A stretch of 63,644 nucleotides of DNA, the filler included, from Folioceros fuciformis (lineage: Eukaryota): NCBI GenBank assembly GCA_049999805.1. It is 9 parts of 9 records of this genome, joined end to end, with 100 filler letters (N's around TTAATTAATTAA, not from the genome) between each part and the next. Parts side by side here need not be neighbours in the genome. Positions count along the whole stretch, not along the records: positions 37,092 to 49,830 come from JBNGIO010005620.1; positions 49,931 to 59,573 come from JBNGIO010005622.1; 7 more parts are not named here. One strand, given 5' to 3'. The position numbers and the translations under genes are program-made. A model generated the notes under the pieces. That model was not told the origin of the DNA. It made no database searches and worked only from the letters and a program-made list of their open reading frames with translations. This document shows, in pieces, positions 7,396 through 63,644 of this stretch; positions within the stretch are counted from its first letter, which is position 1, and the number at the start of each line of letters is the position of its first letter.

Positions 7396-7495
7396 NNNNN
7401 NNNNNNNNNNNNNNNNNNNNNNNNNNNNNNNNNNNNNNNTTAATTAATTAANNNNNNNNNNNNNNNNNNNNNNNNNNNNNNNNNNNNNNNNNNNN
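7396..7495. other. Artificial contig spacer (first of eight)
   Basis: Identical 100-bp N44-TTAATTAATTAA-N44 blocks at 7396-7495, 11956-12055, 22718-22817, 36992-37091, 49831-49930, 59574-59673, 60881-60980 and 62486-62585. Adjacency across them is not biological evidence. Confidence 0.98.
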
Positions 7496-8045: not shown

Positions 8046-8057
8046 TGGTATCAGAGC
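8046..8057 (+). promoter_or_regulatory. tRNA-iMet primer-binding site
   Basis: TGGTATCAGAGC. Also at 16288, 25698, 46492, 52340 and 48752 (1 mismatch), and on the minus strand at 61814-61825. Confidence 0.95.
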
Positions 8058-8087: not shown

Positions 8088-8636
8088 ATGCCGAGGAACA
8101 GATCGAGCTGTGGAGTTGGTGGTAGAGGAGGTTTTGTCAAATCCTTCTCTCGACCTCTCAACAGATCATCTGTGCCCTCAAGCATCCCCTGGATTGAGAT
8201 TGAATTGAAGGCTGAACGTGATCAACGAATTCTAAAGAATTATTGGCATTGTCAGAGTCGCAGGGACTTCCATTGTCAAACGCATAAAATTGCTACATCT
8301 AAATCTTGCAACAGTTGTGGCAGATTTTTGATTCCATATCACTTTGCAGCTAGGCCACCCTTGAGGCGACCACCTTCTGCTCCACAGTCCTGCACGAGGA
8401 ACACCAGCACATCAACAAACACATTACTGGATTTTCAACCTCAGATACAAGATTTGGAAGGTATATTGAATGCTGCTGTCCAGTGGCAGGAATCTTTTTC
8501 CAAACGCCTGGACTCAATAGACTGGAAGATCCACAAGATTGCTGCTAAGTTTTCCTCAGAAATTGATAGACTGACCAGGCAATTACAGATTTTAAACATA
8601 ACACTCCGTTCCTCTGATGAGGAGCACTCAGATTGA
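8088..8636 (+). CDS. Accessory ORF upstream of gag in copia B (182 aa; Cys/His cluster plus C-terminal coiled coil)
   Basis: Open from an ATG 30 nt after the PBS. Contains HCQSRRDFHCQTH...CNSC and the heptad-patterned IQDLEGIL...IDRLTRQLQIL. Confidence 0.65.
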   Translation: MPRNRSSCGVGGRGGFVKSFSRPLNRSSVPSSIPWIEIELKAERDQRILKNYWHCQSRRDFHCQTHKIATSKSCNSCGRFLIPYHFAARPPLRRPPSAPQSCTRNTSTSTNTLLDFQPQIQDLEGILNAAVQWQESFSKRLDSIDWKIHKIAAKFSSEIDRLTRQLQILNITLRSSDEEHSD

Positions 8637-11955: not shown

Positions 11956-12055
11956 NNNNNNNNNNNNNNNNNNNNNNNNNNNNNNNNNNNNNNNNNNNNT
12001 TAATTAATTAANNNNNNNNNNNNNNNNNNNNNNNNNNNNNNNNNNNNNNNNNNNN

Positions 12056-16487: not shown

Positions 16488-17099
16488 ATGCCGAGATTTA
16501 GAGGAAAAGACAAACAGCAGTTGGTCGATCCATTCGCGGGTGCGCCAGGAGACTCCGTCGAACTCTTGTGTCGAAGACTCACCCATTTCTTCAATTCACA
16601 CTGCAAGAACCTGCACCAGCATAGACGCACTGTCAATCAGTCCGTTCGTCACAAACCTGATCCACTACATTCTTTACACACACAAATCCGGCAAGAAATT
16701 GCACAGGCGCGTGAAATCTCTGCTCACTCTGCACGCAGGTTGGCAAGTAATCGCACCTTACTTTGTCAAGATTGCACAAATGTTATAAATTCCTATCCCT
16801 CACTTGCAACACAGCTCCTGGTCGAGGTGTATGAATTAGTAGTAATCTTGCGCAATCACATTGCAGAGTTAACCTCTAGATTCAGCAACACCAACCTCAA
16901 ATTAGACACTCTAATCTCACAAGTATCTACCCTATTAGTCCCTAAAACAATACAACCTGCTAGTGTGCACTATGGGTCAAGTACCTTACAAGAATCAATC
17001 CCACCAGTGGTCAAGAACATGCTAAGTATGGAGAAAGTCTTCGAGAACGAATTGCAAAGGAAGGAAGCAATTGAACCCTCACCGGTTCACCCACAGTAA
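16488..17099 (+). CDS. Second leader ORF of copia C (203 aa; His/Cys residues, CxxC, coiled coil)
   Basis: MPRFRGK start; HCKNLHQH...CQDC; LRNHIAELTSRFSNTNLKLDTLISQV. Stop is 8 nt before the gag-frame ATG at 17108. Confidence 0.65.
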   Translation: MPRFRGKDKQQLVDPFAGAPGDSVELLCRRLTHFFNSHCKNLHQHRRTVNQSVRHKPDPLHSLHTQIRQEIAQAREISAHSARRLASNRTLLCQDCTNVINSYPSLATQLLVEVYELVVILRNHIAELTSRFSNTNLKLDTLISQVSTLLVPKTIQPASVHYGSSTLQESIPPVVKNMLSMEKVFENELQRKEAIEPSPVHPQ

Positions 17100-22717: not shown

Positions 22718-22817
22718 NNNNNNNNNNNNNNNNNNNNNNNNNNNNNNNNNNNNNNNNNNNNTTAATTAATTAANNNNNNNNNNNNNNNNNNNNNNNNNNN
22801 NNNNNNNNNNNNNNNNN

Positions 22818-25697: not shown

Positions 25698-26212
25698 TGG
25701 TATCAGAGCTACGGCTCACATGGTTACTGATCATGGCTAGAAAGATGCTGTTGAGTTTGCGCAAGAACTCTGGGGAGATCTGCGTAAGATGGGGAGATCT
25801 CTGGATCTCTTAGGATGTTTAATAGAAAGTTGCTTCTAATTAAATCTGCAAATCAACAGGTTTAGATTAGAGTAGCAAGCTTCTCTATACATTCTACTTT
25901 CAGAATAGAACGTTCTGATATAAAAATCCACGAAAATGATACCGTTGATCGGTCCCCCACCTCAATATTGATCCTACCCCTAGGCACTCAACTTCAGAGT
26001 TTTGATGTGGAGCGGGTTACTTACCCGACTCATACCTCAGCACGTTATACATCTGGTTTGGTATAAAGATATGAAGAGGCAAACGCCGTAAAAATGACTT
26101 TAATTTTCGTAGAGAGGCTCGCGGCCTCTCCCTCTTTGCGCTTCGTTCACATGCGCGACGCGAGACAATTGTCGCGGGGGCAATTCTTGTCAATCTCTCC
26201 AATCAGATCACC

Positions 26213-27226
26213 ATGGCAAGAACTCGCAAGAGATCTCAACGTCCAGGTTCACGGTCTCAGAGGCAAATTGGGCCTCAACCTAACAGAATTGCAAGGGATC
26301 AGGCATCCGGCCGATGTCCAATCTTCGGAATTCTGAATCCTCCCAGGGAATTGCAGGCCCTGTCTTCTTCTGATCAGATCGCAATTTGGCTCTCTGCCCA
26401 TGGCTGGCTACATGGAATCCAGGCCTCTGTACCTCTCTCAAATTCGCTTGAGATTGCTGCTTCTAGGCCTGAGATTGCCCAGAATTGCCCTTGCTTCAGT
26501 CCAGATTGCACACACAGGAATCCCAGATTGTTTGCTCTTCAGGTAGGAGCTCGCCAGGTGGATCTGGCAGCAGGGGGAGCACGATCCTTTCCCAACCACA
26601 ATTCTTTGCAGGAGGTGCAGGTTCAGGGAGAGGCCTCCCACATCACCGCAGCGCGTGAGGATGCCCTCGCAATGCGCGGAACGGCGCGGGGGTCCGAACC
26701 GGTGCCCCCGCCCGGTCGTTACGGACCGGTTCATTATGAACCGGTGCCCGTGACCGGGTGTGCACCGGTTCATAACTGAACCGGCAAACTTAATGCCGGT
26801 TCGAGCCCGGACCTGACCTATCCCTCCTCGGATCTAACTAATCCTTACTTTTCTAAGAATTCTGGTTTTCAAGACTTTGCTGGTGGCCTTTCTACACATA
26901 ATACAGCCTCTCAACAATTGATCTCCGCGCCTGTTGGACCAGCTCTTGTGAAAATCGAATCGGACTCTTCGCTACCTCCACATCGCGGATTGGCCATCCG
27001 AGTTGTTCCTCCCAAGCGCTCTCTGGCAGAAGTTTATGCTTCGTGTGGTGATCCTCTTGGATCCACTGCTCCTCCGGCTCGGCGGGATAGACTTTTGGCT
27101 CTCTGGCAATCGGTGGCCAACGCCAACGAAGACCTTCTTAACTTGGCAACCCAAATTCAAGAATTTCAAGGGCTTGACCTAAGTTCCGAGAGTACTGAAG
27201 TCACCGAGCCCTCCTCCTCTCCCTAG
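26213..27226 (+). pseudogene. 337-codon accessory ORF of copia A (MART N-terminus), one internal TGA
   Basis: ORFs 26213-26779 and 26918-27226 share a frame and the interval between them is stop-free. The single TGA at 26777 is compatible with CGA>TGA. Confidence 0.7.
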
Positions 27227-36800: not shown

Positions 36801-38513
36801 CAGTCGAAAGTGGAGCCAGATCAAAATGCGCGATCACTTCTTTGATTGGCGTGCTCTCCAGCGGAGGAGGCGAGACGCCCAGAATTGCAGACGCGCCTCC
36901 CAAATCAGCAGTCGCAGCCTGAAATTGGAAGGGCGCACCACCTGAATTTGTGGCGGCGACCTGAAATTGTGGAGATGTCCCGCTTGGATATNNNNNNNNN
37001 NNNNNNNNNNNNNNNNNNNNNNNNNNNNNNNNNNNTTAATTAATTAANNNNNNNNNNNNNNNNNNNNNNNNNNNNNNNNNNNNNNNNNNNNCTTGAGGAA
37101 CTTCCTCTCCTCGACTTCAACCATTTTCTCATACTTCTGAAACAAACGGGTTTCCTCATCAGTAAGAGCGCAGGCTGGTGGATCCGAATTCGAAGACGAG
37201 CGAGCCTCCCCGATGGTCAGAGGCCTAGGCGCCACATTCAGTCCATCCTCCTCAAGAGCCGACCGAACGTCCACAGCCTCCTTAAGAGCAACGAGGGCAG
37301 GCAATCCCATGAAGAGCTGCTCCGAATCAGAAGCCAACTCGTCCAGCCCGGTAAGCTGTTCCCACACCAAAAGTCCGCAAGACAGAATGTAGTCCCGACC
37401 ATACTTCTGCACTGCGGTGGCCGTTCTCTTTGCCTTCTGCTTCCGAATGGCCAACGCTCTGGACACCCGGGCCACGAGATCGTCAAGAGTAGCATCAGGA
37501 TCACCTCCGTCAGCCTTGGATAGCGCTCAATACGCCTCAACGCAAACCAAAGCCTTGTCGTACGAGGTATCAAACAACTTCTTTTAATCCCCTGCCGGCT
37601 TCTCGCAAATGTAATCCGCAACCGCAGTGCTTAGCCACACTACTGGCTTCCTGTCCTTGTATCCATTAATGGACCAGGACTCCAACTGCCCAAACCCCTC
37701 GAACCGCAGCCAGCTTCGGCTGCCTCTGCACACACGGCAAATTCCCTTCCCCTTCCGCTTCCCCTAATCTTCATCACCGTCTCCACAACAACCGCCTTCG
37801 CAGTTGCGACGTCCTCGAACACCATATCCAGCAGCCCCAGCGCCTCCATAGACCACCCCGGTCCCTGGCTTCCTCCTCTGCCTCCACCCCTGTTTTTTCA
37901 GAATCAGGCCGACCTTGAACAAGCTCACACACCCAAGCACCTTCCTGCCAGTCCAACCGTAGCTGGGTCTTGGACCGTTTCCCAAACCGCCTCAGGAAGA
38001 GAGCCGGTGAATCCTTTCCGACTGGATTGCTATTTGCATTGCTTTCAGGCAAGCTTGGCAATTCCTCCGGGTTTGACGCAGTCAGATTCCCCCCCCTTAT
38101 ACCCCCGAATGGGAGGGAACGAGACCCAGTCCCCAAAGATTGAGAGCTCACAATTAACAAGCTATAGAAGCTTGTCCAGCCAAATTTCCTTGCCAAGTGT
38201 TGCAAGCGAGTGTCTATGAATTGCATAAGAGTGTGCATGAGCACAGGTAGCTCGAAGTAGTGTGATTGTGAATAAGGTCTCGCAACAATTTTGGAGGAAG
38301 GACACGCTAAGGAGATCTAAGAGTGCGTGCTAGAGGAGTCGTGTGCGAGAGCAAGGCACGTGAGGAGCGTAACAAGTGAATCCATTTGGACGTTCAATAT
38401 CTAGTGCAGGTGCACAGAAACTCAAGATAGCAAGGATCTATTGGAGTGTTGGGAGTGAAGTAGTTGAAAAGACATTGCAAGTAAAAGTGTTGGTTTAGAT
38501 GGAAGCTTGAGTT

Positions 38514-41968: not shown

Positions 41969-42420
41969 ACACACACTCCTACTCTTCAAGAGCTCACTCT
42001 TCACTTCTATGCATTCCACTCCAACTCTTCCTCTCTTTTCTTCAGCTCTTTCCCCCCTGGAAATTAGAGCACAATGGCTTCACTTCTTGCAGCCTTCAAG
42101 CATAGTGTGGCTCTAGGACTGGATAGCCCTTCAGCTCACGGTCCTGTTCCTTCACTTCAGCCAACCTGCGATTCATGTAGCCCTTGCGGATCCGGCCACA
42201 CGGATCTTGACAGCCCCAGGATCCCCACGTTCCCCTAGTGGCAAGGGGAATCAAGACTTTGGGTTGACCTCAACCGGCTCAGCGCCCTAAGCCAGGAGTT
42301 CTACCCACAAAATCCGGGGACCTCACACCATAGACCGCCCCCCCTTCAATGGCAGGCCTCTCCTCTTGTACCCTCACCCTCATCTCTCTCTCTGACTTAA
42401 ACCATCCTACATCCGGTTGT

Positions 42421-42545
42421 GACCTAAACCTAACCTCAGTCTGACCTAACCCTAATCTAAGCCGGACCTAGACCTAACCTTAATCTGACCTAACCCTAAT
42501 CTAAGCCTGACCTAGACCTAACCTCAGTCTGACCTAACCCTAATC
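42421..42545. repeat. 44-bp (2x22) CCTAA-rich tandem repeat x2.8
   Basis: Units start at 42421, 42465 and 42509: gacctaRacctaacctYaRtctgacctaaccctaatctaagcc. Confidence 0.88.
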
Positions 42546-45500
42546 CTGATCGCAGCCTAACCAAAGCCTAACTCTAACCTACCCCTGCACCTAATTGCCC
42601 ATTACCCCCCTTGGACACCGCTGGTTGCCCTCTATCCAACATTGTCAGCCTCTCACAACTAGCAAGAATCCGGGGTGCTCCTCAACACTCTCCTCTACTC
42701 CCTCAGATCCTCCCCTAACTCCCTCAGGGCCTTCACCTTCTTCCAATCCTCAAGCCCCCCCCTTGCTAGCCATATTGGCCAAGAAGGTCTGGCATGTAGC
42801 TGTAATGCTAACTGATAGTTGGACACAACTCATTAACCTCCTGTCCCTGCTCTCTAATTTGTGCATGCAATTGCTCTCCTTTCTTACTGCTGCGGCTTCC
42901 ACATTTGCAGCACTTAGCTTCCAGACCTTTGCTCCGCAATCTGTGGAGAGATGCAACCAGTCCAGTAAAGCCCAGTGGTGTTCGTGTTTCTCCTGTGCCC
43001 AGCTTCCGTACATGAGAGTCTATTTCGACGGTTTTGGTTTATCTTTCAGCGCCTCCACGGAAATGATCCATGTTTCCATCGGTCCACCCCTTCAGCCCGA
43101 AGCGCCCGGCCCCTGACCTTCAACCTCCTCTCGCAGGCAGGTGAGTTAGGGTGGAATCGAGAGCACCACGCGGTTGGATCGTATAGAGCCAGCTCCGTGT
43201 GCCAGTGGGGGGTCGGGATGTGTGCTCTGGGGAGGATTCCGCCATTTGCTTCCCTGACACCCGACCATCCGTGTTACGTTTCCCCCTTCAAACCTGGCAA
43301 CTCATAAGCATCCCCCGTCTTCCACAGGAAGGTCACCAAATCAGTTGCCATGTTCAGCCTATATCTAGTACCTAAAAATCGCCCCTATCGACAATACACC
43401 CTCCCGTGCACTACCCTCTCATGCACATAGCACTACCTCCAACTGGGTCACCATCGCAACTATCTACCGCCTCTCAATCCTCCCCTGCTTCTGGCTCCTG
43501 AATCGCGGGGTGAGGCTAGAAGCCCCGGAACTTCTTCCCCACTGGCCACACTCTCGGATCAAACATATTGAACAGCATCAGGCAACCAACCCACTATTCA
43601 GGGGGAAAGGTGAACCCGCCTGGGTCCCCTACCTGTAGCGCAACGCCTTGCCCCTGACTGGGCCTCCACTGGAGCCAGCCATCACGATCCAACCTGCCCC
43701 CTGCCGACCACCTGGCTGGATCCTCCCCAACGTCCTACGCAATCCGCCAGTCGGTCAGCGAGCCTGCATGCTTGCCCAGATCATGTCGCCACCCGCATGG
43801 CCTGGATCCGGTTGCTGCTGGACCACTTGCCAACCTTCGGATCCAGCCCTGGTCCCGACCAGCTTTGATCCGCCCCGGCCGCCTGCCGATTGTCCGCGCT
43901 GCTAGGACGCTTGCCTACCTTCAGCAGCCGGGCCACTGCTTGGGATCCTGCAACTAGGTCAGTGGGCCACTGCTTGGGATCCTACCCGGCTTCGGGATCT
44001 GACCCCGGCCAGCGAGCTGGGTTTGCCTGCCAGGCCTCCTGCCCTCCTGAACCTAGCCAGGCAGCCAGCTTGCTGGGTCCGCCGCCCGATTGTTGCCTAG
44101 GCCCCGCACCCAGCCAGCCCGCCTTGGGCACAACGCCGCCCACCTTGCCCATCCGGCCTGGCCAAGACGAGACCCTTGCTAGGCCCCGTCTATTGTTGCT
44201 GTTGATGCCAAATAGAAACCGGCTCGGAGCAGAGGCACGGGCACCATAAGCCGCCTGTGCCCCGCCTATTGGATGCCTTGCCAGATCCGGCCAACCAACC
44301 CCATGATCCAGCCTACTAGACTGATCCTGGCACCCGCTTGCTTGGGGCGCCGCTTGCCTGGATGCCAACGCCCACCTTTGATCCGCCTGGACGCTGCCCG
44401 CCCCAGCTTGCCTCTTGCTTGCGTCAATCCCGTTGAGCCCGATTCTGCGCGTCATGGCTCCGCTTACTTGCCTGGATTTCGTAGGCAACCCGCTTGAGAC
44501 CCTACCGTTGATTAGCTGTCCACCTAGCCAGGCCTCCTACACCTCGCTTGGCCAGTCTCCAGTGGCGCACGCCCTACCTGATCCGTTCCGGCCTGCTGGA
44601 TCTAGCCCGCAACCTACCTGGGTCTGCTCCTAGCAACGCCTACCTGCAGCCCGGCTTGCCAATCATCCAGGCTTCCCGGATCCGCCAGCAACCAACCTGC
44701 TCATCGACAAGCCATGCTGCCTGCCATGCAGGGCTGTCGGACTGCCCACCTGCAGCCCGATCGATTGGCTGGCCGCTGATGGTCGGCTCAGCCTCTGCTG
44801 CCTGGCTCAGGTCCACCCCGGCCAGCTCCTGCAAGTCGGGCAGCCTACCTGCTCGCAGCCCGACATGGCCAGCCGTCCTGCTTGATCCGCTCTGGCCTGC
44901 CACAACCCGCTGGAGCGGCCTGCCCCCAACTGGGGCCTCCCCTGCTAGCCAGGCCCTCGCTTGGCTCTAGGATCGGCCAGCCATCACGGCCGGATCCAGC
45001 TCCGCCCCTGCCTGACCCACCTAGGACTATCTGTCGATCTGGCCTCCTGGCCGGCTAGATCTGCCAGCCCACCCTCCTGGCAGCCTACTGCCGGCCACTT
45101 GCCCAGAGGCCGCAACCTGGGGCCGCAACCTGGCTCCTGCCTTCTGAATCCGGCCAGATCTAGGCCACCGCCCTATCCCGCTGGTCTGCTAATTTGGCCA
45201 CCTGTGCTCTAGTGATCCCTATCCACCCGACGCACCAGGGCCGCGTCTCGACACCTCCATCTCTGTCCCCAACTTCCACCAGTGACAGCCAGAAGACCCC
45301 CCAGCTCGCTTTCCACGACGTCCCAAGTTTCCTATTCCTCCGTTATCTTACCCCGAGGAACCAGAGCCCGTGTCCCATCCACCACACAACCTACCTACCC
45401 TATCGACTCACCATCAATCTAGCTATTATTCTAACCTAACCTTTCAACCTTTCCTCTACAACACTCACCCACAAATCCAAAAAAAAGAAAACCTATCATT

Positions 45501-46340
45501 TCCCAGGGGTCTATTCAGCATGTGGAGTCCACAAGTAGCTGAGCGTCAGACAGGCAACCTTTTGAAAATCTTGCGTAGCAACAACGGGACCAAATTTGCC
45601 AACACTGAATTCGATGCGTTCTTTATTTAGTGAGGAATCCAAAGACAATTTAGTGGGCCCTACACCCCACTACAAAACAGAGTTGTAGAGCGCAAGAATC
45701 AAACTCTTCTCTCTACGACTAGAAGCATGCTTTTGTGGTCCGGCCATCTATAGGGCTTCTGGGCAGAAGCCATTGTGTTCGCCACTTATATTTCCAATCG
45801 GGTTATCACAAGCTCAGTGCCCGAGCGCACACCATATGAGGTCCTTTGGCAGTGGAAGCCAAGCGTTCTTCATCTGTGGGTATTTGGATTTGCGGCTTTT
45901 GCCCACATCCCTGCACATAAGCGGCGCAAGTTAGAAGATAGAGCAAAGAAGTTAATTTTTGTGGGATATAGTGAGATCACCAAAGCCTACAAACTCTTCG
46001 ACCCTAAGATTCACGACATCACCTTAGCACGAATTGTCACCTTTTTGGAGCCAGCCTAGCAAGCTTCAGAGGGAGCTGTCTCGGCCACAGACCCAGCCCA
46101 CCCATACTTTGATACTCCGTCAAACTTTCTTGTGGAGGACAGCGACCCTAGCACTCTGGACACAGCGGATGATGGTTCAGATGCTGAGGATGGGGACCCA
46201 GCTATACTTGTCTTCACTCTTGAAGCCAGCGTCGGCACCTCCCTGGATACTCCCCCTGCCGCTGACAACGCCACTGGTGACCCTATACCGGCCCCACATG
46301 AAGATGTCCTCGATGGGCCACCGCTTGCTAATCTACCGCC

Positions 46341-48592
46341 TAAGAACATGTTGGTTAGTTTCAGGTCAATAGGTTAGGAACCTAGCGGTTATAACTGTCA
46401 ACTCCTTGAGTTCACGAGACATGGTTTGTACGCAACATATAGTATGCTATGCAAGCATTCCTTGCTTCGTAGGCGCGCCTCCTACTTGTCATGGTATCAG
46501 AGCTGCTTTACACTTAATGATTCCTGCTATGGCCTAATGGATCGTTCACCTTGATCACGGCGATGCGTTCTTTCCTACATATCGTGGGAATATGCAATGC
46601 TGAGGTGTTGACAACAAATGCATCCGGTCGATTGTCGCCTAGAGAATGTCTACAACATCACGCTTGATTAGCAACAATGCCTGGACTTAGGAAGAGACAG
46701 CGCTTCGCACGCAAAGCACAAAGGCTGCAAAGCTTAAGAGCCTGGCAGCGTGAGAAGGACGAGACGTACCTTCAAACACTCCATGCGCTGGCAACAAGTT
46801 TGGGTGAAGATCTGCATCATTTGTGAATTAATGGCAACCAATATTCTTAATGGCTATCCTACCCTTGATGGTTATGATTGGAGTAGCATCGATGTTTCTG
46901 ACCTCGTTTGAACACTATGTTACTTCCTTCGAGCATCAAGTCCTTTTACCTATATTTTCCAACATCAACATATGCTGTGTATGCAAGCTTGCGTGAACAC
47001 TTGAATGCCCTCTTTCTGGGAGAGCCTGCACATGAGCCACTGTACATAGTACATCAGTATGCAGCTCACATACTGTACAAGATTGAATCAGAATATAGCG
47101 TTCACGACGCACATATATTAGAGGTCACCATTCAGCACTGCAGTGAAATAAACAAGCCGTACTCCTGCAAGGCCCCATATAGAGCCATTTTGCTTTAAGA
47201 AGGGCAGATATGGCAAACCAAGCCTCAGCAGCCATTCAACATACATCCCTATCTACTATTGCCAAAGAAGACAAGTTTGATGGGGAGAACTTCCACGTTT
47301 GGAAGTTCCGAATCGAGGTTGTGCTGAAGTCAAGAAAGCTGTGGGGCCATGTTGGTGGGGTAGGTACGCCTCTAGTACTTATACCCAAGCCTGGAGTAGG
47401 ATCTGCACTTGTGGACATTGCCAAGTGGGAGGAAGCTGATCAGCAGGCAAAAGACCTGCTGCATTTTAGTGTGAAAAACACTCACATTGGCATCTTTCAA
47501 GGAGCTGGTGACACAGGAGCGGACTGGTGGAAGCAAGTCAAATTAGTTTATGACTCAAGGGACCTAATGTTACAAACTCTAGTTCTCAAGAAATTCTTAG
47601 GCCTTAAGATGACTGAAGGTGATACTGTTGATAAACATGTATTGGAATTTTATAACTGGAGAGGAAAAATGATTTTTGCAGGGTTTGACCTGGAAGAAGA
47701 ACTGTTGGCCGTCATCTTGCTTACTACACTCCCAGATACATGGTCCGGAGTGATACAAAGCCTGCAAGATGTATCCACAATTACAGTCAACAGAGTAATT
47801 GCAGCAATGCTTATGGAGGAATCCCGGAGGAAGATGTCTAGTACATCTATCTCTTCTAGTGACAAGGCCTTTTATTTGAATAAACCTTTTAGAGGTAGAG
47901 GCCGAGGCCGTCCGTTTGCGAGAGGAGGCTATGGAGGTCGTGGTGGCCGAGGAGGCACCAGACCCCAACAATTCGGAGGAAGTACAAAGCAAAGACCTCC
48001 ATGTGGCCACCGTGGGTTGACAAACCGCACGTGGGAAACTTGTTGGAAGAGACTTGCCGGGGAAGGTGGCCAATCTTCAAGTCATCTGGCTGTCACAATG
48101 AGCAAATACAATCGTGCTTTTGTTACACACCTAACCACCATAAAGGAGAAGCAAGACGACTCACCTGAGTCACATTTAATTCCATCCTGCAATGTAGCTA
48201 CATGCTTTGTCTATCAGCCAACACATCGTTGGCATATTGACAATGGGGCCTCTCAACACATGACCCCACATTCTGCATACTTCATTGAACTGCATGATAG
48301 CGCTCCTATTGAGTTTGTGTGTTTGGGAGATGATACCACACACAAGATAGAAGGTCAAGGAACAATTCAGCTCAATCTCGAGCCCAATCAACAATTTGGA
48401 GATATCAAATGTATTATATGTTCCAGGTTTGACAAAGACCCTTGTATCAGTCCCGAAGATTGACGAATTTGGCTGTTATGCTTGTTTTGGTGGTGGCAAG
48501 TGTGTAGTTGAAACTGCAGACGGCACACTTTTGGCCACTGGTCACCTGCAAGACGATGACCTCTATCACTTAGACCTCAAGAAGCAGCAGGC
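46341..48592 (+). mobile_element. Ty1/copia family E, copy 1
   Basis: 151-bp LTR 46341-46491, PBS 46492-46503, ORF-A 46677-46911 (5-bp deletion), ORF-B 46917-47198, gag-PR from 47210. Confidence 0.93.
46917..47198 (+). CDS. Leader ORF-B of copia E (93 aa, His/Tyr-rich)
   Basis: Intact here. Homologues at 49295-49576 and 52793-53074, with mostly synonymous differences between E and F. Confidence 0.75.
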   Translation: MLLPSSIKSFYLYFPTSTYAVYASLREHLNALFLGEPAHEPLYIVHQYAAHILYKIESEYSVHDAHILEVTIQHCSEINKPYSCKAPYRAILL

Positions 48593-49830
48593 TGAAAGTA
48601 TACATGTAGTTAGTTAGTTACAGGTCATTAGGTTAGAAACCCTAGCGGGCGGTTAGGACCCCTAACGGCCAACCGTCCACCGCTACCACATTCATAAGAC
48701 ATGGTCTATACATTTTCTTTCCTAAGCAAGCATCTCTCTTGTGATCTCTCATGGTATGAGAGCCAGACTTTGATCCCCTAATCACTGTTCTGGCCTGATG
48801 CTTCATGCGTGGTAGCTGCTGTGTTGCATTCTTTCCTATCCTGGGATGGAATATGTGACGTGGTGGTTATCATTTTCAAGAACGCTTGCTTCTCTGCAAT
48901 TTTTTGTGCTACTCCTTCATGAGGTAGCACAATCCATGCGTTCTCTTCCTGCCAAGATCTGAGCGCTGCTATCTGGTGGATTGCTGTCAGCACATGAATC
49001 TGGTTGAAGCTCATCTGGAGAATGTTACAGCACAACACCAAGTTATCAGCTATGCCTGGTCTTAGGAAGCTACAACGCCTTGCACACAGAGCTAGCAGGC
49101 AGCAAGAATTGAGAGTGTGGCAGCGAAGAAGGGACAAGGAGTACCTCCAAACACTCGCCCCTAATCGCTGGCAACAAGTTTGGAACAAGGTCTGCATAAT
49201 TCTTGAATTGATGGCAACCAATGTCCTCAATGGATACCTGCTTTGGATGGCTATGATTGAGCAATATCGATGTTTTTGACCTTGTTTGACAAACATGTTG
49301 CTTCCTTCGAGCAGCAAGACCTTCTATCTTTGCTTTCCAACTTCAGCATATACTGTGTATGCAAGTTTGCGTAAACACCTAAATGCTCTCTTCTTGGGAG
49401 CCCCTGCACATGAACAACCATGCATTGTGCATCAGTATGCAACGCACATACTGTACAAGATATAATCTGAGTATAGCGTCCACCACACACACCTGCTGGA
49501 GGTTACCTTACAGCGCTGCAGTCACCAGCATCAGCCCTATTCCTGCAAAGCCACATATAAACCTGTTCAACAGCAGAAGGGACAACTATGGCGGGCCAGG
49601 TCCCAGCGACTCAGCAGTCACCAATTTTGAACATTGCCAAGGAGGACAAGTTCGATGGTGAGAACTTCCATGTATGGAAGCTACGCATGGAGGAAGTTCT
49701 GAAGTCACGCAAACTCTGGGGCCATGTCCAAGGCATAGGCACACCTCCGGTGCCTATACCTAAACCTCCTCCTGGTTCAGCAACTGAAGACATAGCCAAG
49801 TGGGAGGAAGCAGACCAGCAGGCAAAGTCC
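48593..49830 (+). mobile_element. Ty1/copia family F (sister of E) nested in E
   Basis: LTR 48593-48751 (TG...CA), PBS TGGTATGAGAGCC, ORF-A 49052-49289, ORF-B from 49295, gag ATG 49588. Confidence 0.92.
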
Positions 49831-49936
49831 NNNNNNNNNNNNNNNNNNNNNNNNNNNNNNNNNNNNNNNNNNNNTTAATTAATTAANNNNNNNNNNNNNN
49901 NNNNNNNNNNNNNNNNNNNNNNNNNNNNNNACTTAC

Positions 49937-50236
49937 TCGATTTCGTTCATCAATCTCTGATTTATATGCCTTTTCAGCTCGAGCCCTCTCCTTTGCATGT
50001 CTTTCATCCATGGCTGCTTTTCTTTTGTTATCCTCAAACACCTATGCAATAATATATGTTCTACAATCCCAAACAAAAATCTTGCAACCAAGTGAGTAAC
50101 ATGTGAACAAAAGATGAATATTTGAACAAACCTTCACACCATGTAGTCTTTGAGATGCAGCACGAGCCTCTAAATAATTTCCTTCAATCTCACACTTCTT
50201 TCTATAATCATCAAGTTCTCTCATTACATCCAATAC
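49937..50236 (-). CDS. Two exons of a host coiled-coil protein resembling a family conserved in flagellated eukaryotes (partial gene)
   Basis: Exons 50236-50132 (VLDVMRELDDYRKKCEIEGNYLEARAASQRLHGVK) and 50041-49937 (VFEDNKRKAAMDERHAKERARAEKAYKSEIDERNR), 105 bp each and phase 0, with AG/GT borders and a 90-bp intron. Family assignment is from recall, not a search. Confidence 0.75.
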
Positions 50237-51529
50237 CTATATAAAACAAAGCTATTTTTATTAAAAATAATCATAATATATTTATGAGGGCTCAAAAAAT
50301 TGTTTGATTAGTGTATCTTGCTTTTCAATTCTAGTGCCAACCACATGGTTTACATAGTTGTTATGTATGAAGATGAGCTTATTTTTATGATTTGATAATA
50401 CTAATTGCAGAGCAAGGTTGTGTACGGCTAGTATTTAGGGCAGAAACTAAAGGAGAAGGGTGAGGGAAGGAGAGGAAACATGGCGGAAGTGAAAGCAACG
50501 GAGGAGGAGAAGGGGGTGGGAATGGGAGTAGAAATGTAGGTGGAGAAGCAGGAGGAAAGGAGGAGATAGGGTGAGAGGGAAAACTAAAGGACCAACCAAG
50601 TACCATGTACCATGTGGGGTTGTCCATCCCTCGGTTGTAGCTACATCACCTGCGGTCATTGTAGTAGCATTGCCAAAGTCCTTCCCCATGAGTCTAGTGT
50701 CATGCTAGAAGCGGCTATCTACTTACATACTCCACCACTCAACTCAAAATACCAACTATAAGTCACTCTCAATACAAACGTTTACATCCATCCACTACAC
50801 GCTTAACAAGGAGCCGATCCTTGAGCAAGAAAGCTGCCCCTCCACTCTCATTTCAAGTGAGGAATTCGAGGCCAATCTCGGAAAATCCTGCCACCAAATT
50901 TTCCGAGATGCTACCTTGATGGCTCACCTTACCACAGTGAGCCACCACCAGCACTGTCACCAATGATTGTGGTTCCAAGGAATTCCCTCGTTCTTAATTT
51001 CCCTGGCTATCTCCTTGGCCCAAGATATCGCAGTAAAGCTGCGTGCAGTCGGCTAGGCTTGCTCGACAACTAGCTCCTTTGTTAAGATGATTTAGGAGTG
51101 CTCTTGATTTCACCTTTGTCGAATCATACAAGAATGCCTGCCGTTCAAGAGTACATGTGCAGTAGGTCCGGAGAGCTAGAGAGAACGATGTTCCGCTCGG
51201 AAAGCAGCCCGTCCAAGCTATGAAGTAGGAGCCAAGCCTTCGTAGCTTCGCCTACCACCTCCCTCTCTGTCACGAAGCAACAGGAATTAGGCTGGGCTGT
51301 GATACACTCCATAGAGGTACCTTTGGTGGGCATTCGAAAGCTCTTGATGAGCACACAAGATGTGTTCCACCGGATGCCCGAAAACCCATGTGACGTCCTC
51401 TTGTGCAAGTCTCTAAGGCAACGGAGGTGTCATCTTGAGGCCAGTCTCAAAACTCGCTTGCTGTCTGCATCGGAGCAACCTAGGTTGTGAATTCTGGAAT
51501 GCCACGAATGCCAGGTGGTATTACCCCTC

Positions 51530-52092
51530 CACCAACACCCTGAGCCCCATGCCCACAAAGATGCATGCCGCATGCAGACCCACCATGCCGGATTCAAAGA
51601 TGCCCTCAGTGCAAAGAAGTACTGGAACCTAGTGGCTTGGGCCTGTAGCACGTACACCACCCCAAACTTGAAGAACCACGTGAATTCCTTCACATACACT
51701 TTGGCCTCGATCACCAAGGCTGCTAGCACGGCAGCCCAGGAAACCGCAGAGAGGGCTAGGGCAAAAATTTCGGAGGGAGGCATGCCTTGCTCCCTGTCCT
51801 ACGGTGCATTCACAGTGCTCCATCCCAGGGACAGTTCTAGCACGGGGGCAGCCACCAAGAAAGCCGCTAGGACCGCCTTCAATGTTTGTGGCAATAGCAA
51901 TTTGAGGCGGAAGCGCATTAGCCTGGGCACTAAGACCAGGAGGTGGATTTGCCACAATACCAGGTAGAGCAGAACACTGTGCAAGATTCTGAGCACCACT
52001 GCGTCCACCATGCAGAGCGTGAAGCTGCCGAAGCTGTTGGCTAGCTGTGTTGCCCACATGCCCTCTGCAATTGGGTGGCAGACGGATGCCAT
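51530..52092 (-). pseudogene. ABCC/MRP transporter N-terminal (TMD0) fragment, ABCC1/2-like
   Basis: CHP...W....NSFGSFTLCMVD...PPSE.F...SW.....IEAKVYVKEFTWFFKFGVVY resembles plant ABCC1/2 N-termini. In-frame TAG at 51799-51801; similarity is lost after about 51530. Confidence 0.8.
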
Positions 52093-52187
52093 CTTCTCCT
52101 TCCAGCGATCCGGGCCTGAGAGGGCGTCATTCCAAGCTTGGGATCAATGAGGTAGCTCTCATCCCACACAAAGTCGAAGGCCATGAC

Positions 52188-55010
52188 TGAGAACATGTTG
52201 GTTAGTTTCAGGTCAATAGGTTAGGAACCCTAGCGGTTGTAACTGTCAACTACTTGAGTTCACAAGACATGGTCTGTAAGCAACACACAGTATGCTATGC
52301 AAGCATTCCTTGCTTCGTAGGCGCGCCCCCTACTTGTCATGGTATCAGAGCTGCTTTACACTTATTGATTCCTGCTATGGCCTGATGGATCGTTCGCCTT
52401 GATCACGGTGATGCATTCTTTCCTACATATCATGGGAATATGCAATGCTGTGGTTGTTCTTTTAAGGAAGCCGAGGTGTTGACAACAAATGCATCCGGTT
52501 GATTATCGCCTGGAGAATGTCTACAACATCACGCTTGATTAGCAACAATGCCTGGACTTAGGAAGAGACAGCGCTTGGCACACAGAGCACAAAGGCTGCA
52601 AAGCTTAAGAGCCTGGCAGCATGAGAAGGATGAGGCGTACCTTCGAACACTTGCCTCCACGCGCTGGCAACAAGTTTGGGTGAAGATCTGCATCATTTGT
52701 AAATTAATGGCAACCAATATTCTTAATGGCTATCCTGCCCTTGATGCTTATGATTGGAGTAGCATCAATGTTTCTGACCTCGTTTGAACACTATGTAACT
52801 TCCTTCGAGCATCAAGTCCTTTTACCTATATTTTCCAACATCAGCATATGGTGTGTATGCAAGCTTCCGTGAACACTTGAATGCCCTCTTTTTGGGAGCG
52901 CCTGCACATGAGCCACCGTACATAGTACATCATTATGCAGCTCACATACTGTACAAGATTGAATTAGAGTATAGTGTTCATGAGGCACATATATTCGAGG
53001 TCACCATTCAGTGCTGCAGTGAAATAAACAAACCGTACTCCTGCAAGGCCTCATATAGAACCATTTTGCTTTAAGAAGGGTGGATATGGCAAACCAAGCC
53101 TCAGCAGCCATTTAGCATACATCCCTGTCTACTATTGCCAAAGAAGACAAGTTTGATGGGGAGAACTTCCACGTTTGGAAGTTCCGAATCGAGGTTGTGC
53201 TGAAGTCAAGAAGTTGTGGGGCCATGTTGGTGGGGTAGGTATGCCTCCAGTACCTATACCCAAGCCTGGAGTAGGATCTACACTTGAGGACATTGCCAAG
53301 TGGGAGGAAGCTGATCAGCAGGCAAAAGACCTGCTGCATTTTAGTGTGAAAAGCACTCACATCGGCATCTTTCAAGGAGTTGGTGACACAGCAGCGGACT
53401 GGTGGAAGCAAGTCAAATTAGTGTATGACTCAAGGGACCTCATTTACAAACTCTAGTTCTTAAGAAATTCTTAGGCCTTAAGATGACTGAAGGTGATACT
53501 GTTGATAAACATGTATTGGAATTTCGTAACTGGAGAGGAAAAATGATTTTTGCAGGGTTTGAACTGGAAGAAGAACTGTTGGCCGTCATCTTGCTTACTA
53601 CACTCCCAGATACATGGTCCGAAGTGGTACAAAGCCTGCAAGATGTATCCACAATTACAGTCAACAGAGTAATTGCTGCAATGCTTATGGAGGAATCCCG
53701 AAGGAAGATGTCTAGTACATCTATCTCTTCTAGTGACAAGGCCTTTTATTTGAATAAACCTTTTAGAGGTAGAGACCAAGGCCATCCGTTTGCGACAAGA
53801 GGCCGTGGAGGTCGTGGTGGCCGAGGAGGCACCAGACCCCAACAATTCGGAGGAAGTACAAAGCAAAGACCTTCATGTGGCCTCTGTGGGATGACAAACC
53901 ACATGTGGGAAACTTGTCGGAAGAGACTTGCCGGGGAAGGTGGCCAATCTTCAGGTCATCTGACTGTCACAATGAGCAAATACAGCCGTGCTTTTGTTAT
54001 GCACGTAACCACCACAAAGGAGAAGCAGGACGACTCACCTGAGTCACATTCAATTCCATCATGCAATGTAGCTACATGCTTTGTCAATAAGCCAACGCAT
54101 GATTGGTATATTGATAGTGGGGCCTCTCAACACATGACCCCACGTTCTGCATACTTCACTGAACTGCATGATAGTGCTCCTACTGAGTTTGTGCGTTTGG
54201 GAGATGATACCACACACAAGATAGAAGGTCAAGGAATAATTCATCTCAATCTCAAACCCAATCAACATTTGGAGATATCAAATGTATTCCTGGTTTGACA
54301 AAGAACCTTGTATCAGTCCGGAAGATTGACGAATCCGGCTGTTATGCTTGTTTCGGTGGTGGCAAGTGTGTAGTTGAAACTGTAGACGACACACTTTTGG
54401 CCATTGGTCACCTGCAAGACCATCGATGACCTCTATCACTTAGACCTCAAGAAGCAGCAAGCAAACTCAGCCTCAGCTCATTCTCACTTTGCCAAACCCT
54501 CACTTACTTACTTGTGGCATTTGCGTCTTGGCCACATGAATTTTCCAAAACTTGTGAAGATGTATAAGGAGCATCTAGTTGTTGGCGTCACTCTGAATGA
54601 CTTTGGCGCTTGTGAGGCATGTATTCTTGGCAAGCATAAACGAGCCCCGTTTCCTACAAAAGCAGCCACAAGAGCTACTAAAGTGTTAGGACTTGTGCAT
54701 ATTTGTGGCCCCTTACCTAAATCTAATGGTGGCAAGGAGTATTTTCTGACCTTTATAGATGACTTCACGTGTTTTTGTGTAGTCTATCTCCTGAAGCGCA
54801 AGTCTGACATCTTTGGCTGCTTCCTAGAGTTCAAGGCATGGGCTGAGCAGCAGACGGGCCATGCGTTGAAGCAACTCTGTACCGACAATGGCGGAGAGTA
54901 TTTATCTAGTGAGTTTGTCTCCTTCTGCAAAACTCATGGTATTGGTCGTCAGCTTACCAATGCACCTACTCCTCAGCAAAACAACGTTTCAGAAAACAAG
55001 AATCAGGCAT
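52188..55010 (+). mobile_element. Ty1/copia family E, copy 2
   Basis: LTR 52188-52339 (TGA...TCA), PBS 52340-52351, ORF-A, ORF-B, gag ATG 53086, PR and IN. Cut by the LTR of H. Confidence 0.94.
52548..52787 (+). CDS. Leader ORF-A of copia E (79 aa, basic helical)
   Basis: Intact MPGLRKRQRLAHRA...DLV*. Start and stop are conserved in all three E/F copies. Confidence 0.75.
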   Translation: MPGLRKRQRLAHRAQRLQSLRAWQHEKDEAYLRTLASTRWQQVWVKICIICKLMATNILNGYPALDAYDWSSINVSDLV

Positions 55011-58000
55011 TGGAAACATATGCTTCTGTGAAAGTTGTGCAAACGATTGTTGCCAAAACTGAATGAATAAAATAATCAATACAAAATGTTTACGAAACAT
55101 GTGTTTAAATATTCATGACTAGAGTCATGTTGTTTCACTTTAACTAAACATATTTAATCTAAATTAAATACATACAACCCTAAGTGTGACAGGGCTTGTT
55201 ATCTTAACACTCCCTCTCAAGCTTCACGCTTAGGTAACAACTGGTCTAGAGCAATCTCCACATAAATGAAGCAAGGCAAATAGTCCACCAGCGGGCAATG
55301 ATTCTCCACACATGAGGCCTCCCCCACTTTGTGGTAGAAAACACATGTGCTAGCGGCGCAGCAGTAGCAGTTTTGAAATTGAAGAAAGCTCATAAAGAAA
55401 AATGGAGATAAATAACTCACAACTGGTTGTCTGCTTATGGCTTCATCTATAGGGTCGTTCGCTCCCTCTGTAGGTCTAATCCTACACTATGTGTCATTCA
55501 CATAAGCTGAGTAGTCACCCAGCTCTAAGCCATCCATATGCTTATAATGTTTTGGCTTAGAAAGTGCTTTGGTTAGAATGTCGGCCACATTGTCATCTGT
55601 TCCAACATAACTAACCTTCATTACCCCTCTATCCACGGCATCCCTGATGTAATGATGGGATATCTCTATATGCTTGGTGCGTGCATGGAATCGAGGATTA
55701 GCGACCAGGGCAAGGGCTGACATGTTGTCGCATAGGATAGGAGTAGGATCCTGTTGTGTCTGCCCCAAGTCGTGCAAGAATCTCCTCTCCCATTCAGCCT
55801 CCTTGGTGGCCTCTGAGAAATTTATACTCTGCCTCTGTTGAAGATAAAGATACAGAGGGTTGTTTCTTGCAACTCCAATTAATAGCAGCTTCTGCAAGAA
55901 GAAAACAATATGTGGAGAGGCTGTGACGGGAGTCAGCATCAGACGCCCAGTCGGCATCTGTGAAACCTTGGAGGATGAGCTTAGGCTTGCCACTACGCTT
56001 GTATATGAGCCCATGTGTCATTGTGCCTTTTAAGTATCTAAAGATACGCTTGACGGCAACCCAATGAGCCCTACCAAGGTGTTCTAAGAACTACGACACT
56101 GTACTAACTGCATATAGGATGTCGGGTCAAGTCCAGTTCGTCACAAAAATGAGGCTCCCAACTGCATGTCTATAGGGTACATCCTGCATATCCAGCTGCT
56201 CCTCTGGGGTCTAAGCACACTGAAGGCTAGTAAGCTTCACGCCCACAGCAGCTAGGGTAATAGTGGGTCGTGCCTCATCCATATGAAACTTGGTCAAAAT
56301 CACCTTGATGTATTTATTTTGATGTATGGCCATCACCCCATCAGCTCTCACTGTCCCTCATGTTGTTGCATGTAGAGTTCCTCCTCAAGCTTGCCATACA
56401 AATAAGTTGTGCATACATCCATTTGATGCAGATACAGATCGTGTTCCGTAGCCATAGCAAGCAGCATCCTGATTGATTGAGATATGACTACGGGGCCTCA
56501 AAAGTCTAAAGTCTCTTGGTAATCTAGGCCTTCAACTTGCTTGAAGCCCCTAGCCACGAGTTTGGATTTGTAACGTGCAATCTCTCCCTTGGAGTTGAGT
56601 TTGTGCTTGAAACCCACTTGCACGAGATGGGTTTCCTACCAAGTGGCAAATCCACTAACTTCCATGTATTATTCTTGATCAAGGATTGATACTCATCCTC
56701 AACTGATATACGCCACTTGTCACCATCAGGGCCATACAAGGCTTGCTTCAAGTTGATTGGCTCATCAGGGATGACAGCAGCGAGTGATATGGAAGTGTTG
56801 CGGAAATCTATAAACTGATAGGGGGGATCGATCCACTCGGCTCTAGGTAGTCTATGGCGGGTGGATCTACGCAACTCGGGCTCTGGTGGAACTTCTACAA
56901 CCTGTGGTGGCATGACATCTGGCTCTAAAACAGGTTCATGGTCATCCTGAAGAGGGTCAGGAATTGCATCTTCCATGAAAGATTCAGGGTGATGTGCAAG
57001 GTTGTTGTCCACAGCTGGTGCATTCAAGTGTTCATGTGCCAGCTCATCTACAGGTGCATGGGCAGGCTGGACATCCTGTGTATCTAAAATAGGCAGAGGG
57101 TTAGCTGGCAGCTCATCATCTTGTGGATACATGGCAGGTACCTGATTAGTGTCCTGCTCATCATCTTGTGGATACATGGCAGATACCTGATTAGTGTCCT
57201 GCTCATCATCTTGTGGATACATGGCAGGTACCTGATTAGTGTCCTGCTCATCATCATAATCAGCTAATGGAGCTGCTCCCTCTACTGACGTGGTCGGTTC
57301 ACCATGAGCATAGCTAGGTTCAGTGAAAGTGACACTATGAGCTAAGGTTAGAGAGTGAGTAACCGGATCATAGAGCTTGTATGCCTTGGCAGTCTCGCTG
57401 TATCCAACGAAAACAAGGCCCTTGGCTCTCATGTCAAGCTTTCTCCTCTTTTTGGAAGGGATATAAGTGAATGCCTTCGCTCCAAAAACTCGAAGATGAA
57501 GCAGGCTAGGCTTACGCTTCCAAAATACCTCATATGGTGTCCTTCCGTGTACAGCACTGGTGAGCACCCGATTGAGGATGTACGTCGCAGCAACTACGGC
57601 CTCTACCCAATACCCTTGAGGTAGACCTGCCCAAAGCAGCATACTCCTCGTCATACCTAGCAGAGTTTGGTTCTTGCGCTCGGCAACTTCGTTCTGTTGT
57701 TGACTACAGGGTACACTAAGCTGGCGCTGAATGCCATGTTGTGCCAAGTACTCGTTGAAGGTTGCGTTGACAAATTCCGTTCCATTATTAGTGCACAGTA
57801 TTCTAAGAAGATGACCCGACTGTCTCTGGGCAACAGGCAACCATTCCTGGAAACAGGTGAATGTATCACTCTTCAACTGCATAGGAAAGGTCCATGTGTA
57901 CCTACTATAGTCGTCGGTCAAGCAAAAGTAGTAACGAGATCCGCCAAGTGAAGCCTCATGTATCTTCTCAGATATATCCGCGTGGACAAGCTCCAATACT

Positions 58001-59573: not shown

Positions 59574-59673
59574 NNNNNNNNNNNNNNNNNNNNNNNNNNN
59601 NNNNNNNNNNNNNNNNNTTAATTAATTAANNNNNNNNNNNNNNNNNNNNNNNNNNNNNNNNNNNNNNNNNNNN

Positions 59674-60880: not shown

Positions 60881-60980
60881 NNNNNNNNNNNNNNNNNNNN
60901 NNNNNNNNNNNNNNNNNNNNNNNNTTAATTAATTAANNNNNNNNNNNNNNNNNNNNNNNNNNNNNNNNNNNNNNNNNNNN

Positions 60981-62485: not shown

Positions 62486-63644
62486 NNNNNNNNNNNNNNN
62501 NNNNNNNNNNNNNNNNNNNNNNNNNNNNNTTAATTAATTAANNNNNNNNNNNNNNNNNNNNNNNNNNNNNNNNNNNNNNNNNNNNGGGCTCTATCAGCCT
62601 TAGGGCGCACTCCCTGACCAGCTGAGGTGCTGCATGGTTCCACTTCTGGGTCATAAAAGTCAAACCCAGCTCTGCCACCAATTTTCCTGCCCTGGCTCTC
62701 CAATGCTCCATGTTGGGCCACAGAAGCAGGTCGATTTGGGGGACAGGAGGTCCCCTCTCCTGTCTAGAGGGTGCTGCTCTAGGGATCAGTTCAGGTCGCA
62801 ACCTCATCCTGGCTGCCCCCCCCCCTCTCGCGCTCGGACTCAGAACTCTTCTGCCCTAGTCGCGCTTTGGCCCTTCCTCTGTTCGCCCAGATCCCTCCAC
62901 CGCTCGCGCCTTGGGGGTCTTCCACTCCCCTGCGCTTGCTCGACCCTCATGCCCTGCGCCGTCTGTCCCGTCGTCCTGGCGCTTTCACCTTCCTCAGCCA
63001 CTTTACGCTTCACGTTACTCCCGCTCCCCACGCTTCCGGATACTGGGCAAAGCTCCCCTTTCTCTAGGGTTTTTCACCCATCGGGCTACCACCAGTCGTT
63101 CCTCCGGCGACGGTTGCCCTGCCGGCTACCGTCGCCTCGTCGTCTCGGCCCTTACTTTGGCCTACCTGAATGTTCCCAAGGACTCGAGGGTCAGGGAGGC
63201 ACTCGCTGCTTCCTCCTTCCTCTTTGTCCCGATCTCCAGTACACCCCCAAACCCTGAAGCCCAAAGTGGACTTTGGGTATAAACACCCTGGTCTTGCTCG
63301 CTTACTAAGCCGATTCGCCTGTCCCTTCACAAAAAAAATCACAACCTGCTCATTCCGTCGCTCAAAATGGGGATTCCGAAAGTTTTTTTCGTTCACACCC
63401 CCTCTTAAACTTAATGCGCTATTTGGAAATACAGAAAAGAAACATAAGGGGTATAATAGCCAGAATACGCAGGAAGACCGCGGACGGGAGGATGACGTCG
63501 CCGCCATGCTGAGCCTCACAATTTAAAAAAAAAAACCGCGGGGTGAGGGAGAAGGGCATGGGGGCGCGGGCGCGCACCAGCCACAGGTTGAGAGGATGAG
63601 CTTATTGGGTAAGCAAACCAATCAAATCGGGTGGCTTAAGAAAA

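Follow-up and report, generated by a model that had tools for sequence, protein, structure and literature searches.

Probable accessory genes under purifying selection between the primer-binding site and gag of short-LTR Ty1/copia elements in Folioceros fuciformis

Can the leader that precedes gag in a plant-type copia retrotransposon hold genes of its own? The question is raised by a pair of small open reading frames (ORFs), ORF-A and ORF-B, in a stretch of Folioceros fuciformis DNA (63,644 nucleotides of GenBank assembly GCA_049999805.1), the whole of which is referred to below as the window. A preliminary description, drawn up from the sequence alone, had reported the pair in three copies from two divergent families and proposed that these leader ORFs are real proteins. 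[quoted passage not shown]

The three stretches that carry the pair (46677-47198, 49052-49576 and 52548-53074) are homologous and represent the 5' leaders, from PBS to gag, of three copia elements, here called c1, c2 and c3; each stretch begins about 185-300 nt past the PBS motif and ends 11 nt ahead of the gag ATG. That motif, TGGTATCAGAGC, which we take to be a match to initiator tRNA-Met, occurs seven times in the window, where chance would give 0.29, and stands at 46492 in c1, at 52340 in c3 and, with one mismatch, at 48752 in c2. All three copies have very short LTRs, a TG...CA repeat of ~143-147 nt directly before the PBS, and no 3' LTR of any of them was found within the window. The elements are Ty1/copia: their gag is of the copia type by the Pfam domain Retrotran_gag_2 (1.7e-23 in c1, at 47210-48463, and 1.2e-11 in c3), and in c3, which is truncated before any reverse transcriptase, gag_pre-integrs and rve follow directly after gag/Pol_BBD. 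Copies c1 (from 46349) and c3 (from 52196) form family E and are 93-95% identical; c2 (from 48605) represents family F and is 74-77% identical to them across both ORFs and 73% identical over the whole aligned leader. Self-BLAST and LTR searches showed that c2 is nested in the gag-pol of c1, with the c1 homology ending at ~48592 and the c2 LTR starting about 12 nt later. All three copies are truncated, and c3 lies on a contig other than that of c1 and c2. In the sense orientation, ORF-A is followed after 5 nt by ORF-B, and ORF-B after 11 nt by gag; the features are as follows.

46349-46491, plus strand: 5' LTR of c1, ~143 nt, TG...CA, 94% identical to 52190-52339 and abutting the PBS; left boundary approximate
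46492-46503, plus strand: PBS of c1, TGGTATCAGAGC
46677-46911, plus strand: ORF-A of c1, disrupted
46864-46940, plus strand: junction hairpin of c1, 77 nt, spanning the stop of ORF-A, the spacer of 5 nt and the AUG of ORF-B
46917-47198, plus strand: ORF-B of c1, intact, 93 aa and TAA; the query that found the homologues
47210-48463, plus strand: gag-protease ORF of c1, 417 aa (Retrotran_gag_2 1.7e-23, Pol_BBD 3.7e-11), starting 11 nt past the ORF-B stop
48605-48763, plus strand: 5' LTR (~147 nt, 48605-48751) and PBS (48752-48763, one mismatch) of c2
49052-49289, plus strand: ORF-A of c2, disrupted
49295-49576, plus strand: ORF-B of c2, disrupted
49588-49830, plus strand: first 81 codons of c2 gag, ended by the contig end
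52196-52351, plus strand: 5' LTR and PBS (52340-52351) of c3
52548-52787, plus strand: ORF-A of c3, intact, 79 aa and TGA
52793-53074, plus strand: ORF-B of c3, with a stop at codon 2, otherwise open to the TAA at 53072-53074
53086-55066, plus strand: gag-pol of c3, decayed; gag ATG at 53086, stop after nine codons

The decayed gag-pol of c3 retains two ORF pieces, 53483-54298 and 54404-55066, in which Pfam recognizes gag, Pol_BBD, gag_pre-integrs and rve.

The landmarks reported for the pair were recovered in all three copies, namely the ORF-A ATG, the string GAC CTN GTT TGA, a gap of 5 nt and the ORF-B ATG. The ORF-A stop had been described as kept, and the string that contains it is, but frameshifts in c1 and c2 leave this stop in frame in c3 only; likewise, the spacer that had been called exact is constant in length but not in sequence (ACACT in c1 and c3, CAAAC in c2). 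Only c3 has a complete ORF-A, and only c1 a complete ORF-B. In c1, ORF-A is missing five bases near 46778-46781; its frame stops after 49 codons at 46824-46826, and the conserved TGA (46909-46911) is out of frame. Two single-base gaps near the end of the c2 ORF-A leave 75 aa up to a TGA at 49277-49279, 11 nt early, the conserved TGA being at 49287-49289, and the c2 ORF-B has an internal TAA (49463-49465). ORF-B and gag are 11 nt apart in both E copies, and the F copy is without a stop at this family-E stop position. All three copies are dead elements. The five bases missing from the c1 ORF-A are present in three of the four listed Logan contigs spanning 46684-46834 (DNA runs X1 and X2), and further genomic variants of the family are visible in Logan contigs of two DNA runs, possibly those from which the assembly was made; at 100-250 nt, the contigs are too short for whole further copies. 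Run X3, from the same sample, was excluded from this reading of variants; its differences over 46492-47300 consist nearly entirely of C>T (21) and G>A (36), and it looks like a bisulfite-converted library.

For the codon tests, the copies were aligned with the frame of the intact copy kept, and family E was compared with family F over 75-77 codons of ORF-A and 91-92 codons of ORF-B. The comparison of 18 codons quoted in the preliminary description is exact (six codons differ synonymously and two non-synonymously), and its statement that differences concentrate at silent sites was borne out at significance by three kinds of test. The Nei-Gojobori method (NG86) gave dN values of 0.20 for ORF-A and 0.16-0.17 for ORF-B, dS values of 0.77-0.81 and 1.08-1.10, and dN/dS (omega) values of 0.25-0.26 and 0.14-0.16, respectively. 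Fisher's test on synonymous and non-synonymous sites yielded p = 3e-5 to 7e-5 for ORF-A and 3e-11 to 4e-10 for ORF-B. Maximum likelihood (ML) under GY94-F3x4 placed omega at 0.32 and 0.26 for ORF-A and at 0.22 and 0.22 for ORF-B, and the likelihood-ratio test against omega = 1 returned p = 0.0024 and 0.00035 for the former and 9e-7 and 7e-7 for the latter; the concern that a formal dN/dS might not fall below 1 is answered by this ML range of 0.22-0.32. Substitutions on the branch between E and F fall at codon positions 1, 2 and 3 in the numbers 12, 12 and 24 for ORF-A and 17, 8 and 32 for ORF-B, and the 282 columns of ORF-B contain no indel between the families. We used the five other frames as a control: their omega values ranged from 0.28 to 4.3, the coding sense frame was the best, and the only other frame below 1 was the antisense frame that shares the third positions of ORF-B (0.28-0.40), which contains stops. 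The conservation is thus not a by-product of the antisense frame, as had been considered, the sense frame surpassing every other frame.

The first 80 codons of gag, compared between the same pair, have a dN of 0.172, a dS of 2.06 and an omega of 0.08. Since the dN of ORF-A and ORF-B (0.16-0.20) is close to that of gag (0.17), the leader proteins diverged as slowly as gag itself. Remnants of both ORFs in every copy together with a gag-like dN are the marks of a conserved additional ORF (aORF), in the sense of the available part of PMC7264820. Between c1 and c3, the synonymous and non-synonymous changes stand at 1:11 in ORF-A and 5:13 in ORF-B; these changes look neutral, as is expected of decay after insertion. 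Both frames were under purifying selection during the divergence of E and F.

An exhaustive HMMER search with ORF-B identified seven proteins at E <= 0.001 among 1,835,955,588. Six of the seven (P0001-P0006) are 85-94 aa long and align end to end at E values from 3e-13 to 2e-5; they are 35-45% identical to ORF-B in the HMMER search, 30-41% over the multiple alignment, and 26-49% identical to one another. In five of the six, the start lies within one residue of the ORF-B Met. The seventh (P0007, 1135 aa), an ankyrin/STAND protein in which just 20 residues matched, was dropped as spurious. The five homologues with a listed source come from Logan assemblies only, each of them forming a cluster with a single member, on contigs 1068-5515 nt long. 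Other searches with ORF-B or its family were negative: the word-index homology search returned zero candidates, single-protein searches for related loci had no match in metagenome contigs or viral contigs, and the sequence search of the PDB gave no match with ORF-B alone and one with its profile (E = 0.48). In Pfam, nothing fell below E = 0.045 for either ORF or for any of the eight members of the ORF-B alignment, and in the ESM Atlas the best score for ORF-B was 0.79, ORF-A being without a usable match. ORF-B belongs to a new protein family with members of ~90 aa in other assemblies.

Invariant columns in the ORF-B alignment are P15, L29, L32, F33, L53, E59 and A86, which are mostly hydrophobic and would fit a folded core. 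An AlphaFold2 (AF2) model built from four window rows has the predicted order beta-alpha-alpha-beta-beta (pLDDT 70, pTM 0.60). Fold searches with the model remained at background, with best E values of 0.2 in Foldseek against the PDB and 0.076 against BFVD, and with the best Z scores in the wide VIA search (7.3 for ThermoDBP-RP1 and 6.1 for HutP) in the background range. N-terminal domains of eRF1, aRF1 and Pelota recur among the weak matches of the model (Foldseek PDB E = 0.34-1.4; VIA Z = 5.0 for 7nwh_t; BFVD ranks 2 and 11); none is significant, and we record them as a lead only. It had also been suggested that ORF-B, being rich in His and Cys, may bind metal. This suggestion, which amounts to a zinc-knuckle-like binder, did not survive the comparison across the eight family members: among the nine columns with His or Cys in ORF-B, 28 and 53 alone have His in seven of the eight, Cys occurs in four and five of the eight in its columns, and four conserved ligands are not to be found. 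The omega of 0.22 and the six full-length homologues strongly support ORF-B as a real selected protein.

ORF-A is moderately supported as a real selected protein, through its omega of 0.26-0.32 and evidence from within the window. The protein is basic over the first 45 residues (pI 11.8) but acidic and hydrophobic over the last 34. AF2 predicted two long helices, at residues 2-35 and 39-60 (pLDDT 65). The PDB sequence search with ORF-A gave one 21-bit match, to a designed protein. Maxima of Kyte-Doolittle (KD) hydrophobicity over 19 residues are 1.36 for ORF-A, 0.58 for ORF-B and at most 1.29 for the six homologues, and the usual threshold for a transmembrane segment is 1.6; by this measure, neither ORF-A nor ORF-B is predicted to contain a transmembrane-grade segment. 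The co-fold score of ORF-A and ORF-B was 0.02, which weighs neither way on binding.

Three other copia leaders in the window bear on whether ORF-A and ORF-B are separate genes at all. Each has, past its PBS and before gag, a single long ORF:

8088-8636, plus strand: leader ORF of 182 aa, past the PBS at 8046
16488-17099, plus strand: leader ORF of 203 aa, past the PBS at 16288
26213-26779, plus strand: leader ORF of 188 aa, past the PBS at 25698

All three begin with a basic Met-Pro/Ala-Arg N-terminus; none has a Pfam match or significant similarity to ORF-B. They suggest that a long ORF in the leader may be a general trait of this genome's copia elements, and they are an argument for reading ORF-A and ORF-B as one gene, expressed by a programmed frameshift at the junction or split from an ancestral ORF by a frameshift that E and F share. 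A weak collinear resemblance of ORF-A to the ORF of 203 aa (in hhalign, E = 0.0024 at a probability of 12%, with the motif TN[IV][LI]N[GS]YP[AS]L) and the position of ORF-B in the -1 frame relative to ORF-A point the same way. We nevertheless regard a single gene as unlikely. A TGA six codons before the ORF-B ATG closes the frame and leaves a shift window of 18 nt, in which no X XXY YYZ slippery site was seen; the homologues start at the ORF-B Met (five of six within one residue) and have no upstream extension; the ORF-B profile finds no match in the other leader ORFs (hhalign probability 0.5%; HMM E = 31); and selection on both frames continued after any split.

Retroelement leaders do carry cis-acting RNA signals, and the whole leader might accordingly be non-coding RNA that serves packaging, dimerisation or translation control, its ORFs being incidental or regulatory upstream ORFs (uORFs). 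RNA structure had also been named in the preliminary description as a possible source of the conservation. Folding of the 533-nt region was no better than that of shuffled sequences (z = 0.00, with 48 of 100 shuffles as good), and the covariation term of the alignment fold was +1.38, where a positive value is a penalty; the conservation of the region as a whole is therefore not explained by RNA structure, although one local hairpin, at the junction, stands out. This 77-nt hairpin, whose 10-bp stem in c1 has the ORF-B AUG in its 3' arm, is stable in the E copies (-25.0 kcal/mol, z = -3.79 in c1; -24.1 kcal/mol, z = -4.04 in c3). With the three copies taken together, pairing holds in 87 of 92 cells, and two pairs are compensatory. 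The hairpin is a point in favour of a non-coding leader, as are the many short uORFs ahead of ORF-A and the dS of the ORFs (0.8-1.1), lower than that of gag (2.06). Against it stand, besides the folding of the region, a codon periodicity of substitutions in exactly the frames that are open in sense, and amino acids of ORF-B that are 30-41% identical (35-45% by HMMER) in six distant homologues of equal length. A leader without coding function is, in our judgment, very improbable.

Equally remote is the idea that ORF-B, and perhaps ORF-A, is a host gene fragment captured in the common ancestor of E and F and without function in the element: the available text of PMC7264820 documents that plant LTR elements transduce host genes, and the homologues elsewhere are free-standing predicted proteins, but transduced genes are there described as present in one or few copies whereas both ORFs occur in all three copies of two diverged families, no relative named in Pfam, NCBI or UniRef was found, all five homologues with a listed source are from raw Logan assemblies and not from annotated proteomes, and the dN tracks that of gag.

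Several observations weigh against the proposal that the pair are accessory genes, and temper our confidence in it. The two small ORFs that had been described are real, but both are open together in none of the three window copies upon translation. The preliminary description was right to count three copies in two divergent families, but with c1 and c3 being 93-95% identical, and so not independent, these provide a single independent between-family comparison. The ORF dS of 0.8-1.1 against a gag dS of 2.06 hints at an additional constraint on the ORFs at the RNA level. For ORF-A, the word-index search found no homologue outside the window, and for ORF-B the link of its homologues to copia elements is inferred. 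The sequencing runs listed with the stretch include no RNA run, and one RNA run that was tried gave no contig, which bears neither way on expression. In c1, the segment from the start of the LTR to the ORF-A ATG contains 12 ATGs, making simple cap-dependent access to ORF-A doubtful. In c2 the junction hairpin is not the minimum free energy structure (z = -0.70), and over the three sequences its covariation is no better than in shuffles (121 of 500). Finally, Pfam, PDB, Foldseek, BFVD and VIA contain no family or fold match that would back any proposed function.

If ORF-A and ORF-B are accessory genes, as we think probable, the element's own RNA would be translated into both proteins, each from a cistron of its own. 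Twelve ATGs stand between that of ORF-A and that of gag, so that plain scanning is unable to serve ORF-B or gag. The 5-nt gap between ORF-A and ORF-B in all three copies corresponds to the stop/start proximity of a termination-reinitiation cassette, and because of this gap, and of a hairpin around the ORF-B AUG that would be opened by a ribosome in termination, ORF-B may be started by ribosomes that have just completed termination on ORF-A. Translation of gag, 11 nt further on, would likewise depend on reinitiation or on another non-scanning route; a short subgenomic RNA is the alternative to termination-coupled reinitiation. With its arginine-rich helical N-terminal half, as modelled, ORF-A is probably a nucleic-acid binder and may act in the nucleus, and the modelled ORF-B is probably a small alpha/beta adaptor, for protein or RNA, that would act in the replication cycle or against host silencing. 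For the element, the two proteins might serve RNA export or packaging, reinitiation, or defence against silencing.

These steps can be extended into a more far-reaching scheme, which we consider improbable when all its parts are taken together. The RNA would be tricistronic (ORF-A, ORF-B and gag-pol) and translated by successive reinitiation, with the hairpin shutting the ORF-B AUG until ORF-A is finished; ORF-A would be an arginine-rich nuclear RNA-binding protein like Rev or sORF1; ORF-B would have a new alpha/beta fold and enable reinitiation at gag in the manner of the cauliflower mosaic virus (CaMV) TAV; and the leader ORFs of 182-203 aa would represent this accessory module in fused or diverged form. 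Were ORF-B TAV-like, its weak matches to the N-terminal domains of eRF1 and Pelota would mean something.

The termination-reinitiation cases in the available part of PMC5902531 are SART1, with UAAUG and a hairpin, the calicivirus TURBS (termination upstream ribosome-binding site) and CaMV TAV. They resemble the present elements in their successive long ORFs, their close stop and start (5 and 11 nt here) and a hairpin at the junction, found here in the E copies. As far as that account goes, they are unlike them in that no stop/start overlap exists here and in that the SART1 hairpin lies downstream of the junction, not across it.

By architecture and selection, the closest analogue of the pair is sORF1/sORF2 from the MDG1 group in Drosophila (412, mdg1, Stalker and blood; Ty3/gypsy). 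According to the available part of PMC11952523, these lie in sense upstream of gag on the full-length transcript, encode ~110 and ~70 aa and have a low dN/dS; translation and localisation were shown, sORF1 being nuclear and predicted to be helical and sORF2 a FAST-like transmembrane protein. Two small sense ORFs before gag with a low dN/dS are also what we observed, with products of 79 and 93 aa, and the predicted helicity of sORF1 is a likeness to that predicted for ORF-A. However, the MDG1 group comprises insect Ty3/gypsy elements whereas ours are plant-type Ty1/copia; the FAST-like sORF2 is marked by a transmembrane helix and a polybasic patch, whereas ORF-B shows no transmembrane-grade segment (KD 0.58) and is alpha/beta by AF2; and whereas the MDG1 proteins were shown to be translated and localised, the present pair is known from its sequence.

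Accessory ORFs of plant LTR elements offer a second comparison. The aORFs treated in the available part of PMC7264820 occur in every copy of a family or in most of them, are conserved like the element proteins and are without database homologues; the present pair shares with them a family-wide presence, a gag-like conservation and a function not known. Those reviewed in that part mostly lie past pol and ahead of the 3' LTR, running in sense (env-like) or antisense, in Ty3/gypsy or Sirevirus-type elements, with upstream ones just mentioned, whereas the present pair lies 5' of gag, in copia, and is tightly packed against gag. Ogre/Tat elements of Ty3/gypsy, so far as described in the available text of PMC2533021 and PMC9181549, have a sense ORF between the 5' LTR and gag, 1527 bp in a Medicago family. 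These are likewise plant LTR retrotransposons with a sense leader ORF of function not known; from their description they are set apart by one long ORF in a giant gypsy element, against a compact copia element with ~145-nt LTRs and two ORFs (240 and 282 bp). In the literature searched, including the REXdb paper, 5' accessory ORFs in copia are undescribed, although annotations of this kind could stand in supplements.

A third ORF across the junction of ORF-A and ORF-B, in the +1 frame (48 aa, with a stretch that is transmembrane-like at KD 2.07), was rejected as incidental, with four synonymous against 20 non-synonymous codons between the families:

46850-46996 (c1), 52726-52872 (c3) and in part 49270-49374 (c2), plus strand: third ORF, ATG and stop kept in all three copies

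Remains of plant-type Ty1/copia elements are abundant across the window, which consists of nine contigs joined by N44-TTAATTAATTAA-N44 spacers; as these joins are artificial, so are distances and "tandem" relations across them:

7396-7495, 11956-12055, 22718-22817, 36992-37091, 49831-49930, 59574-59673, 60881-60980 and 62486-62585: spacers

Upstream of c1, positions 42001-46000 have a G+C content of 0.56-0.59 and a strongly negative GC skew, with 0.38-0.52 in the rest of the window.

LTR retrotransposons are usually viewed as gag-pol machines. They are known to have accessory genes mainly in two places: 3' of pol, in the gypsy elements of plants, and upstream of gag, in the MDG1 group of Drosophila, one of the latter genes being a mediator of cell-to-cell transfer. 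A conserved accessory pair at the 5' end would add a new protein family to the biology of copia elements, and with it a translational puzzle, that of how gag is reached past two long ORFs and a dozen ATGs. Since an intact natural frame exists for each of the two genes, ORF-B is directly testable. Should the tricistronic scheme, improbable as we hold it, turn out to be true, 5' accessory genes would be a general and overlooked trait of the plant-type copia elements of this genome. More broadly, the pair indicates that the leaders of transposable elements, masked in annotation, can conceal genes under selection.

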